Assembly: GCA_963772365.1 (NCBI GenBank)
Contig: CAVYXA010000003.1
Span: forward strand, 576,001 to 640,000
DNA length: 64,000 nucleotides
Direction of reading: 5' to 3'
Source of the DNA: an uncultured Verrucomicrobiae bacterium
Lineage (GTDB): Bacteria > Verrucomicrobiota > Verrucomicrobiia > Chthoniobacterales > UBA10450
Position numbers and translations under genes: made by a program. Below the pieces are notes generated by a model. The model searched no databases, had not been told where the DNA came from, and was given only the letters and a program-made list of their open reading frames with translations. This document shows positions 35,681 to 55,959 of the stretch, one piece after another; position 1 is the stretch's first letter; each line of letters begins with the position of its first letter.

Positions 35681-35748
35681 CTTCGCCGTCGCTGGAACTG
35701 CGGTTGCGAATCGAACATTCGGCGAGAAAATCTGTCTCAAAAACACAC

Positions 35749-36735
35749 ATGAAATCGACTCAGGAAATCACGCATGAAGTGCAAGAGCTTGGGCAATGGA
35801 TTCCCGCGGTTCGTCAACAGGTTGGCCACGTCGTCATCGGGCAGAAATATCTGATCGATCGCCTTTTGCTCGGGCTCCTCGCCAACGGGCATATCTTGCT
35901 GGAAGGCGTTCCCGGCCTGGCAAAGACCTTGGCTGTGAAGACGATGGCCGCCTGTATTCAGACCGGTTTTCAGCGCCTGCAATTTACGCCCGATCTGTTG
36001 CCAGCGGACTTAATTGGCACCCTGATTTACAATCCGCGCACCGGAGAATTTTCGACAAAGCTCGGCCCGATTTTCTCCAATCTGATTTTGGCCGACGAAA
36101 TCAATCGCGCGCCGGCGAAGGTGCAGAGCGCGTTGCTCGAAGCGATGCAGGAACGTCAGGTTACGATTGGGGAAAAAACCTATCCGCTGTCTGATCCGTT
36201 TCTGGTACTGGCGACGCAGAATCCGATTGAGCAGGAAGGCACGTATCAATTGCCGGAGGCGCAGCTCGATCGATTCATGCTGAAACTGAATATCGGCTAT
36301 CCGCAAAAAATCGAGGAACGCAAGATTCTCGATTTAATGGCCACTTCCGCGCCCGACCTGCGTGTCAATCCGGTTATTGAGCCGAAGCAAATTATCGCGT
36401 CCCGGGATGTCGTGAATCACATCTACATCGACGATCGGGTGAAGGATTACATTGTCGATGTTGTCTGGGCGACGCGAGAGCCTTCGACTTACAATTTGAA
36501 TCTCGAGGGGTTGATTCGCTACGGCGCATCGCCGCGGGCCACGATCTATCTGGCGCTGGGTGCGCGAGCCCATGCGTTTCTGAATGGCCGCGGCTACGTG
36601 ACACCGCAGGACGTGAAAAGCATCGGTCCGGATGTGTTGCGCCATCGAATCATCGTGAGCTACGAAGCCGAAGCCGAGGCGGTAACGAGCGAGACAATCA
36701 TCGAAAGGATTTTCGCCGGATTGCCGGTGCCGTGA
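35749..36735 (+). CDS. MoxR family AAA+ ATPase
   Basis: HILLEGVPGLAKT, QFTPDLLPAD, ADEINRAPAKVQSALLEAMQE, LPEAQLDRF. Confidence 0.96.
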   Translation: MKSTQEITHEVQELGQWIPAVRQQVGHVVIGQKYLIDRLLLGLLANGHILLEGVPGLAKTLAVKTMAACIQTGFQRLQFTPDLLPADLIGTLIYNPRTGEFSTKLGPIFSNLILADEINRAPAKVQSALLEAMQERQVTIGEKTYPLSDPFLVLATQNPIEQEGTYQLPEAQLDRFMLKLNIGYPQKIEERKILDLMATSAPDLRVNPVIEPKQIIASRDVVNHIYIDDRVKDYIVDVVWATREPSTYNLNLEGLIRYGASPRATIYLALGARAHAFLNGRGYVTPQDVKSIGPDVLRHRIIVSYEAEAEAVTSETIIERIFAGLPVP

Positions 36736-36748
36736 GTGCATGCGAGCA

Positions 36749-36842
36749 CGTCATTCCGAGCGAAGTCGAGGAATCCCGTGGCGCTGCCTGAAACGTAACT
36801 TCATGGAGTCCTTGGGCTCGGCTTTACTGCGCTCGGGGTGAC
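36749..36842. repeat. Left REP-like palindromic unit (GTCATTCCGAGCG...CGCTCGGGGTGAC)
   Basis: Imperfect long inverted repeat; same family as 37178-37230 and 55868-55959. Confidence 0.8.
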
Positions 36843-36852
36843 AGTCTGGAGT

Positions 36853-37176
36853 ATGCAACATCAAAATTACTTCGTTTACATTTTGACGAATGCAGATCGT
36901 CACACGGTTCTTTACATCGGTGTCACAAACAGCCTCGAACGCCGCGGTAGCGAACACTCACTCGGTCGTGGGAGCGTTTTTGCAAAGCAGTACAATGCGC
37001 ACAAGCTGATTTATTACGAAGCCTATCCCGATCCGACGACGGCAATCGCTCGAGAAAAGCAGCTGAAACGATGGCGCCGGGCCAAGAAAGAAGCCCTTAT
37101 CGCACGGACCAACCCGGAATGGAAGGATCTGGTTGAAGAAATGTACGCTGTTCGAACTAGCGGAGGTTCTCGGTAG
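36853..37176 (+). CDS. GIY-YIG nuclease superfamily protein (small stand-alone type, 107 aa)
   Basis: YFVYIL..VLYIGVTNSLERR..EH..F...Y....LIYYE.Y.....AIAREKQLKRWRRAKKEALI...NPEWKDL. Confidence 0.93.
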   Translation: MQHQNYFVYILTNADRHTVLYIGVTNSLERRGSEHSLGRGSVFAKQYNAHKLIYYEAYPDPTTAIAREKQLKRWRRAKKEALIARTNPEWKDLVEEMYAVRTSGGSR

Positions 37177-38123
37177 TGCCGCGGGATCCCTCGACTCCGG
37201 TCGCTGCGGCGACCTCCGTTCGGGATGACGGCCATGCGACCGCCACGGCTGAAATCCTCAAGAAAATTCGCGCTCTGGAAATCAAGACTCGCGGTCTGGT
37301 GGAAGCTGCTTTCGCGGGCGATTATCACAGTGTCTTCAAGGGACGGGGAATGAACTTCTCCGACGTCCGCGAATACCAGCCGGGCGACGATATTCGGGCG
37401 ATCGATTGGAATGTCACGGCGCGGCTCGGAAATGCGTTTGTAAAGCAGTTCACCGAAGAGCGCGAGTTGACGGTCATGTTGATTGTCGATGTTAGCGCAT
37501 CGGGGAATTTCGGGAGCACGACACAATCAAAGCGCGAGCTGGCGGCTGAAGTTGCCTGTCTGCTCGCGTTCAGCGCGATCCGGAACAATGACAAAGTAGG
37601 ATTGCTCCTCTTCACGGATCACGTGGAATTGTTCATTCCGCCCAAAAAAGGGAGCTCCCACACGCTGCGGCTTATTCGCGAGATTTTGTTTTTCAAACCG
37701 CAGGGCCGCGGGACGGAGCCGGGATTGGCCCTCGATTATCTTAACAAAATTGTGACGCGTCGATCGGTCGTTTTTCTTATTTCGGATTTTCAAGCGCCGG
37801 ATTTCTCGCAAGCGCTTGCCGTAACCGGCCGCCGTCACGATTTGATTGCTGTTCATATTCATGATGAGCGCGAGAAAGTGTTGCCCAATATAGGGATCAT
37901 TACGCTGGAGGACGCAGAGACCGGCGAGCAAATCGAGCTGAACACAACTGATCGCGGCACGAGGAGTCGTTTTGCCGAGGAAGCGGAGCAGCAGGATGCG
38001 GAACTGTCGAAGTTGCTTCGACGAAACAATATCGACTCCATCGCGTTACAAACCGGCCAGGATTATCTACCTGCCTTGCGATCGTTTTTTAAACAGCGCG
38101 AACGTCGTTTAGCCATTCGATAA
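37176..38123 (+). CDS. DUF58 domain-containing protein
   Basis: HSVFKGRGMNFSDVREYQPGDDIRAIDWNVTAR, EERELTV.LIVDVSAS, FLISDF. Confidence 0.93.
   Translation: MPRDPSTPVAAATSVRDDGHATATAEILKKIRALEIKTRGLVEAAFAGDYHSVFKGRGMNFSDVREYQPGDDIRAIDWNVTARLGNAFVKQFTEERELTVMLIVDVSASGNFGSTTQSKRELAAEVACLLAFSAIRNNDKVGLLLFTDHVELFIPPKKGSSHTLRLIREILFFKPQGRGTEPGLALDYLNKIVTRRSVVFLISDFQAPDFSQALAVTGRRHDLIAVHIHDEREKVLPNIGIITLEDAETGEQIELNTTDRGTRSRFAEEAEQQDAELSKLLRRNNIDSIALQTGQDYLPALRSFFKQRERRLAIR
37178..37230. repeat. Right half-repeat with an inserted GGTCGCTGCGGCGACC hairpin
   Basis: GCCGCGGGATCCCTCGACTC-CGGTCGCTGCGGCGACCTC-CGTTCGGGATGACG, inverted relative to 36749. Confidence 0.8.
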
Positions 38124-55835: not shown

Positions 55836-55867
55836 CTCGTTATCCCGAGCGCGGCACATCTCCGCCT

Positions 55868-55959
55868 GTCATTCTGAGCGGAGCGGAGCGAAGTCGAAGA
55901 ATCCCGTGAAATTGCCTTCAGGTTTTGCAACGGGATCCCTCGACTCGGCTCGGGATGAC
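55868..55959. repeat. Empty CGTC/GTCA-type palindromic element of the family flanking the GIY-YIG gene
   Basis: GTCATTCTGAGCGGAGCGGAGCGAAGTCGAAGAATCCCGT ... ACGGGATCCCTCGACTCGGCTCGGGATGAC; extra half-site CGTTATCCCGAGCG at 55838-55851. Confidence 0.85.

Follow-up and report, generated by a model that had tools for sequence, protein, structure and literature searches.

A probable Ssn-family GIY-YIG nuclease gene and its hairpin repeats fixed in the moxR-DUF58 operon of an uncultured Verrucomicrobiae bacterium

Ssn GIY-YIG nucleases with flanking hairpin repeats (called NTS or SRM) were described by Chenal et al. 2025 (Nat Commun 16:2388, PMC11893778). In Neisseria meningitidis the NTS-flanked gene ssnA encodes a 94-amino-acid single-domain GIY-YIG protein of CDD family cd10448, and the Neisseria repeat NTS reads CGTCATTCCCGCGMAVGCGGGAATCYRG. 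SsnA binds the hairpin as single-stranded DNA only, on one strand, and cuts a few nucleotides upstream of it; double-stranded DNA and RNA are neither bound nor cut. Cutting depends critically on the three bases that precede the palindrome, and binding on the C that follows it. Each of three more homologs was likewise found to cut the repeats belonging to it, and the four characterized enzymes come from Neisseria, N. elongata, N. wadsworthii and Wolbachia. A related motif was found near 71% of homolog loci, on both sides in 42%. The authors liken the arm-gene-arm layout to an insertion sequence and raise domestication by analogy with RAYT and REP (PMC11893778). Within the literature accessible to us, a search on SsnA and Ssn returned no other relevant paper. 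Here we describe a probable member of this family, together with the hairpin repeats (arms) that bracket it, between the genes moxR and DUF58 in 64,000 nucleotides of an uncultured Verrucomicrobiae bacterium (assembly GCA_963772365.1, contig CAVYXA010000003.1, positions 576,001 to 640,000). This whole stretch is referred to as the window, and the coordinates given below are counted from its first letter.

Based on sequence comparison, we put at about 85% the probability that the gene encodes an Ssn-family GIY-YIG nuclease and that the inverted arms are its cognate, Ssn-related hairpin motifs. The system is a new example of the published one, not a new kind. A first-pass annotation of the window was not aware of any characterization of such a nuclease paired with such repeats; the pairing has already been published across phyla and biochemically for four homologs (PMC11893778). 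The same annotation had read a stand-alone gene of 107 amino acids between moxR and DUF58, and this is borne out. The gene (36853-37176, plus strand) matches Pfam PF01541 at E 6.8e-16, and GIY-YIG, over residues 5-79, is the sole Pfam domain of the protein. The left arm, CGTCATTCCGAGCGAAGTCGAGGAATCCCGTGGC (36749-36782, plus strand), starts 13 nucleotides after the end of moxR and runs from a CGTC tag through a 5-bp stem, ATTCC/GGAAT, around the loop GAGCGAAGTCGA to a C and CCGTGGC. The right arm (37178-37230, minus strand) carries a 19-nucleotide GC hairpin at 37198-37216, which replaces the (GAGCG)n loop expansion usual in orthologs. Both arms are of the class termed B below. After removal of the 19-nucleotide insert the two arms agree at 29 of 34 positions by hand count, the figure first reported, and a repeat search recovered their inverted repeat in two halves of 32 nucleotides (81%) and 17 nucleotides (82%). 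Between the left arm and the gene lies a degenerate inverted arm, GTCACCCCGAGCG... (36826-36842, minus strand; inverted repeat with the left arm over 17 nucleotides, 82%), so that the left flank of the nuclease gene is itself an arm pair. The upstream flank is likewise a full arm pair in the orthologs L004 and L013.

The resemblance to Ssn and NTS extends over several features. The protein is small and single-domained, as in Neisseria, and inverted, directional hairpin repeats bracket its gene. The arms share with the NTS consensus the CGTCATTCC...GGAATC frame, the GTC tag and the C after the palindrome. As with SRM, hundreds of copies are dispersed in the genome from which the window comes, and the arm variants differ between nuclease paralogs, suggesting paired specificities. 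The difference lies in the arm interior, which is GAGCGAAG(T)CGA, a GCGAAGC-type mini-hairpin flanked by G/A mismatches, whereas NTS has CGCG-MAV-GCG. Unlike the published Ssn cases, the cassette here is fixed inside an operon and one of its arms is translated.

The protein itself is in line with this assignment. Residues Y9, Y21, G23, R30, R31, E34, H35, E68 and N87 are invariant among 13 homologs from several phyla, and the spacing pattern of Y9, Y21 and E68 matches that of Y6, Y17 and E64, the residues that Chenal et al. 2025 mutated in the enzyme of Neisseria. The nearest cultured homologs, from Hymenobacter, Maribellus and Mucilaginibacter, are 51-61% identical. Supplementary Data 4 of Chenal et al. 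2025 (PMC11893778) credits those species with an SsnA homolog and a cd10448 hit, and Chthoniobacter flavus is likewise given an SsnA/cd10448 homolog. In a large protein search the matches were named only 'putative endonuclease' or 'predicted GIY-YIG superfamily endonuclease', which gives no family assignment. The traits of an I-TevI-type homing endonuclease were not found: the protein has no extra DNA-binding domain and its gene sits in a chromosomal operon.

The association of arms and nuclease was followed across a collection of species-representative genomes, in which 562 relatives were confirmed and the best 80 loci were analyzed. The 14 closest loci are 69-90% identical to the protein over the best segment. 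A plus-strand arm stood upstream of the nuclease gene in all 14 of them, and a minus-strand arm stood downstream in all 13 that could be assessed, L015 stopping at a contig edge. In the set of 80, an arm lay within 250 nucleotides of the gene at 72 loci, with a plus-strand arm upstream at 63, a minus-strand arm downstream at 54 and both, in the inverted layout, at 48. The arm density was 4.85 per kb near the gene versus 0.38 per kb in the outer flanks. The phyla represented are Bacteroidota, Verrucomicrobiota, Bacillota, Patescibacteria, Acidobacteriota, Chloroflexota and Pseudomonadota. Across these loci the GTCAT head and the ATC tail are constant, unlike the stems. The first-pass annotation had looked to flanking repeats at homologs across taxa as support for its proposal that the nuclease recognizes the hairpin repeat. 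Such repeats are present, and with arms at 14 of 14 orthologs and 72 of 80 homolog loci the recognition is most likely.

The host genome assembly (3.35 Mb in 6 contigs, 90% complete) is rich in arms. The 13-mer GTCATYCYGARCG occurs 118 times exactly and 215 times with at most one mismatch, and GTCATYCYGAGCG has 111 exact matches versus none for the reversed pattern. If an arm is taken to be GTCAT with the next three bases, followed within 6-45 nucleotides by the reverse complement of AT plus these three, there are 277 arms in the genome versus 13 in the reversed-genome control. Overall, the estimates of arm number run from about 170 to 280. A C directly follows the palindrome in 207 of the 277. 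The three variable stem bases change together with their partners. Complementarity is kept in 54 of 59 arms with the stem TCT (partner AGA), in 43 of 43 with GTT (AAC), in 19 of 20 with CCT (AGG), in 17 of 20 with TCC (GGA), in 9 of 10 with CCC (GGG) and in 8 of 9 with GTC (GAC); taken together, these six variants are complementary in 150 of the 161 arms where the partner was found. This covariation supports the arm hairpin through compensatory change.

Two classes of arm can be told apart. Class A, TGTCAT-xyz-GAGCGAAGCGA-x'y'z'AT-CTC, comprises 121 arms, including 38 inverted doublets, with a T preceding GTCAT in 112 of the 121. Class B, (C/T)GTCAT-xyz-GAGCGAAGTCGA-...AT-CCC, comprises 52 arms with 15 inverted doublets. 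The two arms of a doublet seldom have the same stem, this being the case in 1 of 38 class A doublets versus 14.5 expected by re-pairing and in none of 15 class B doublets versus 3.1 expected. Since doublets are copies of each other, such mixed-stem pairing may be inherited rather than selected anew each time.

Within the window, a gene-less class B pair of inverted arms occupies 92 nucleotides at 55868-55959 (no strand). This doublet is both cassette ends joined through a short spacer, and its presence confirms the empty repeat copy noted there before. A truncated extra arm head, GTTATCCCGAGCG (55839-55851, plus strand), adjoins it. Allowing one mismatch, GTCATYCCGARCG occurs six times in the window versus 0.69 expected, a count reached by none of 100 shuffles, and the inner arm motif occurs four times versus 0.99 expected, a count reached by one of 100 shuffles. 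The arm loops carry one to four 5-nucleotide units (GAGCG, AAGCG or CAGCG), as if from slippage; the variable units are seen in the window at 55880-55892 and in the right arms of loci L003-L009.

The arm classes were then compared with the nuclease paralogs. Sister genera have up to 7 matches to the protein, the extra paralogs being 47-56% identical. At 12 sister-genus paralog loci, TGTCAT...ATCTC-type arms flank the gene on both sides in 6 and on one side in 2, and no convincing arm was found in 4. In the same-genus genome G129, the protein search returned a single paralog, 45% identical, which is not the moxR-locus ortholog. It is flanked by class A arms, one with a TCT stem and the other with a GTT stem, and the combination of TCT and GTT makes up 29 of the 38 class A doublets in the genome under study. 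In G136, another paralog is flanked by arms with a third kind of tail, ATCGGG. As far as these loci go, the arm classes track the nuclease paralogs. The G136 paralog, at locus L133 (G136:C5, about 1250-2180 in the locus), lies amid eight CGTCAT...ATCGGG arms, which stand in alternating orientation on both sides of the gene.

Several observations weigh against the assignment to Ssn. The published SRM pattern, a degenerate search pattern hand-built from 29 genomes (PMC11893778), had 18 starts in the genome, where 10 dinucleotide shuffles averaged 19.9, and it had none in the window. The different hairpin interior is the reason why this pattern does not match the arms here. An SRM enrichment of just 0.46-1.7 was published for C. 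flavus, several Hymenobacter, Maribellus and Mucilaginibacter (PMC11893778), and at homolog loci of some of those same species we see flanking arms. Single arms fold no better than shuffles by nearest-neighbor DNA energies (z -0.84 and -0.75); the doublet at 55868-55959 forms a long hairpin in DNA folding (z -2.5 and -2.7). Membership of the cd10448/Ssn clade is supported indirectly, by the species listings of the nearest homologs, an NCBIfam search assigns the protein to no family, and its best solved-structure match is a UPF0213 protein (PDB 1zg2, BH0048) at just E 4.3e-7 over residues 4-87. Unlike the published Ssn cases, the 107-amino-acid protein is known from sequence alone. No cognate gene was found in this assembly for the more abundant class A: tblastn with the G129 paralog returned nothing closer than the moxR-locus gene and no remnant, in an assembly 90% complete. 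Class A is apparently an orphan arm class in this assembly.

The remaining point against the assignment is the occurrence of repeats where no nuclease is detected. In an order-level sample of 121 genomes, 16 are repeat-rich, that is, with at least 19 matches to the 13-mer. They comprise every one of the 12 sampled members of the family to which the window belongs and 4 genomes of another family. The expected relation between repeat number and gene presence holds for the 12 of these 16 genomes that have a homolog of the nuclease, and fails for G029, G054, G109 and G087, which are repeat-rich without a homolog detected with this query. Of the 105 remaining genomes, 16 match the protein at E <=1e-5, just 4 of them at E <=1e-17. 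Related genomes are not independent, so this co-occurrence is a description and not a test, and G122, G125 and G131 support no claim.

The position of the cassette in the operon could be followed through its relatives. In the window, moxR (35704-36735, plus strand) encodes an AAA_3 ATPase (Pfam AAA_3 E 3.6e-64 plus AAA_lid_2) and is the upstream operon neighbor; the DUF58/VWA gene (37176-38123, plus strand; Pfam DUF58 E 2.3e-82) follows the nuclease, and after it come DUF4381 and two BatA/VWA genes. Adjacent to the nuclease gene, moxR is found in 14 of the 14 closest loci and DUF58 in 13 of 14, and neither is found in any of the 66 distant loci. The empty moxR-DUF58 junction that the first-pass annotation suggested looking for in relatives exists in G029 and G109, where the two genes are 5 and 10 nucleotides apart, respectively. 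G014 and G065 have a gene-less arm pair at this junction, and G054 has about 120 nucleotides there with no recognizable arm. The site shared by the closest loci, together with the empty and gene-less junctions, shows that the arm-gene-arm cassette inserted a single time between moxR and DUF58, in an ancestor common to part of the Udaeobacter-like family, and has been inherited vertically since, now as part of the operon. In some lineages of the family the cassette was never present or has been reduced to its ends. It is conceivable that the repeats came first and the gene landed in a pre-existing doublet; the data give no order for the two events.

The capture has left its mark on the next gene. 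In the window, as in all 13 assessable orthologs, no stop codon interrupts the DUF58 frame within the right arm, and across these the DUF58 start codon overlaps the nuclease stop codon, as TAATG, TGATG, TAGTG or ATGA. In the window, the GTG at 37176 is the only in-frame DUF58 start before the conserved EILKKIR motif, and the overlap is TAGTG. With an open frame and an overlapping start, the right arm encodes the N-terminal peptide PRDPSTP...RDD of DUF58. Translational coupling of the two genes is probable. In L010, L011 and L014, the ATGAC end of the right arm gives an in-frame ATG for DUF58 (peptide ...LGMT...), and this second possible start lies 42 nucleotides past the nuclease stop codon.

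Arms elsewhere in the genome are less settled than the cassette. The doublet at 55868 is absent at the orthologous spacer in the same-genus G129 and in G029. The comparison with G129 covered 400 kb, with the moxR locus outside that stretch, and contained 20 elements with both flanks, of which 4 were dropped for rearranged flanks (G129 gaps of 1192, 10535, -96031 and -1556). At the 16 remaining sites, G129 has no arm in 12, class A-type arms in 3 and a doubtful match in 1; at a flank identity of about 70-84%, this shows gain or loss and not rate or direction. Gene-less arm pairs and single arms are scattered in the genome and turn over quickly between relatives. Doublets of class A and class B are both mostly absent in G129, and about 80% nucleotide identity cannot separate the turnover of the two.

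What the enzyme might do can be outlined from its homologs in Neisseria, N. elongata, N. wadsworthii and Wolbachia. When the DNA becomes single-stranded, during replication, repair or uptake of foreign DNA, an arm would fold into a short hairpin with the 5-bp stem ATYCY/RGRAT around the GAGCGAAG(T)CGA loop. The protein would bind this hairpin plus the C just 3' of it, and would place its cut a few nucleotides 5' of the GTC tag, on the same strand only. Action on a cruciform or supercoiled duplex after the manner of Slx1, which the first-pass annotation had in mind, is a misfit, as the characterized enzyme of the family cuts single-stranded DNA only, and one strand of it. Two roles may be considered. 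The nuclease could make new repeat copies, as has been proposed for RAYT and REPINs, or it could act on the repeats only, for example by trimming incoming or exposed single strands.

Other described repeats and enzymes share parts of this arrangement. In REP/REPIN-RAYT systems, too, the gene for the enzyme is present in single copy, is inherited vertically and stands between hairpin repeats of its own, inverted doublets are spread over the genome and, as in the Ssn family, hairpins are recognized in single-stranded DNA. The enzyme here is a hydrolytic nuclease of the GIY-YIG fold, whereas RAYT is an HUH tyrosine transposase; the repeats are tagged (C/T)GTC(AT) rather than with the GTAG of REP, and strand-transfer activity is not known for Ssn. 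The CGTC-tagged palindromic repeats of Di Nocera, De Gregorio and Rocco 2013 (BMC Genomics 14:522, PMC3733652) are, in the parts of that paper available to us, also short end-tagged stem-loops, often in inverted dimers and with mixed stems predominant (heterodimers in their terms). Those authors concluded that such repeats apparently have no enzyme of their own, drew no link to GIY-YIG genes, and suggested that many of the repeats act as RNA elements; unlike those repeats, most arms here are TGTC-tagged. The UPF0213/YhbQ-type GIY-YIG proteins, to which the structure 1zg2 belongs, resemble the present protein in size and in having a single GIY-YIG domain, whereas their sequence similarity to it is weak. 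We know of no repeat association for this group.

How the doublets arise is a matter on which we are more tentative than on the identity of the enzyme. It is possible, at odds clearly short of even, that each Ssn paralog and its arm class form a partnership like that of REPIN and RAYT, with the doublets as miniature cassettes copied in trans by the cognate nuclease. This fits a nuclease long fixed in the moxR-DUF58 operon while its doublets come and go, and it fits the 121 class A arms here, whose cognate paralog is in a same-genus genome but not in this assembly; class A would then be an orphaned repeat population, or one cross-served by the remaining enzyme. That the arm-gene-arm unit is instead an active transposon resembling an insertion sequence, still moving whole in this lineage with the doublets as its miniature inverted-repeat elements, is unlikely. 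The layout is indeed that of an insertion sequence with terminal inverted repeats, the doublets are two ends joined and turn over quickly, the empty junctions of G029 and G109 show a past insertion, sister genera reach 7 protein matches, and the TCT and GTT arms of the G129 paralog have the stems of most class A doublets here. However, the nuclease gene has one close copy only in this genome, and its junction is shared by all 14 closest orthologs, including those of only 69% identity. DUF58 coding sequence now makes up the right end, and with the DUF58 start overlapping the nuclease stop, excision of the cassette would remove that start. No target-site duplication can be defined between filled and empty sites. 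The characterized enzymes cut each strand once, 5' of the motif, and with inverted arms this means one cut per strand, so that no single-strand segment is excised.

Two further explanations would separate the repeats from the nuclease, and both are improbable to a higher degree. The repeats might be independent elements that an HUH/RAYT enzyme mobilizes, or that function as RNA or terminator hairpins, and their build-up near the nuclease gene would then be incidental. There are indeed 9 Y1_Tnp (HUH) matches in the genome, 7 of them over the Pfam cut-off, and the 4 repeat-rich genomes without a detectable nuclease homolog could be read in this way, as could the absence of a dedicated transposase and the suggested RNA role in the available parts of Di Nocera et al. 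2013 (PMC3733652). The arm density, however, is about 13 times higher within 250 nucleotides of the 80 homologs than in the outer flanks, and arms on both sides were seen at none of the 9 Y1_Tnp loci, one of which has a single arm about 1.4 kb away. The enzyme flanked by arms is the GIY-YIG nuclease, as expected of a repeat-associated system with a non-RAYT enzyme, which is what the first-pass annotation had proposed. (The Y1_Tnp matches include C1:1727950-1728279 and C1:531070-531348, and some fall within long open frames of 310-904 amino acids.) Moreover, the arm class matches the paralog, with class B at the moxR locus and class A-like arms at G129 and 6 of the 12 sister loci; an Rfam search of 36500-37500 at E up to 1 gave no match; and the published enzymes bind and cut their motifs as single-stranded DNA, not RNA (PMC11893778). 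The idea with the least to recommend it is that the nuclease is a functional part of an aerotolerance-type MoxR-DUF58-Bat operon to which the repeats are incidental. Its conserved position in the 14 closest loci, and the stop/start overlap suggestive of translational coupling, would agree with such a role. They are set against the 66 more distant loci, not one of which has moxR or DUF58 adjacent, against G029 and G109, where moxR and DUF58 adjoin without the gene, and against an association across phyla that is with the repeats and not with the operon.

Two other places in the genome, both outside the window, have small GIY-YIG genes. At C1:377014-379075 (part of it in L002), such a gene lies beside a tRNA-Asn and is 32% identical to the present protein over 74 residues; tblastn gives six GIY-YIG-like segments there, the last five about 321 nucleotides apart, which points to a tandem array whose units are separated by tRNA-like sequence. 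GTCAT arms are not present in this interval. At the end of contig C6 (C6:170-469), an open reading frame of about 82 amino acids with GIY-YIG features is flanked by sequence resembling the T-arm and acceptor end of a tRNA, and GTCAT arms are not present within the first 1200 bases of that contig.

The locus provides a clean, well-resolved Ssn example from Verrucomicrobiota, in an abundant uncultured soil lineage. The published SRM pattern misses the repeat variant found around the Ssn genes of Verrucomicrobiota, Bacteroidota and further phyla, and the published counts of SRM-bearing genomes are therefore likely underestimates. The additions to the published system are the operon capture, the correspondence of cassette and doublet, the matching of arm class to paralog and the apparently orphan class. 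Arm classes that track paralogs offer natural enzyme/site pairs to those who seek new cutters of single-stranded DNA. A nuclease cassette can also turn into a fixed member of an operon, with one of its arms supplying the start and the N-terminus of the next gene.

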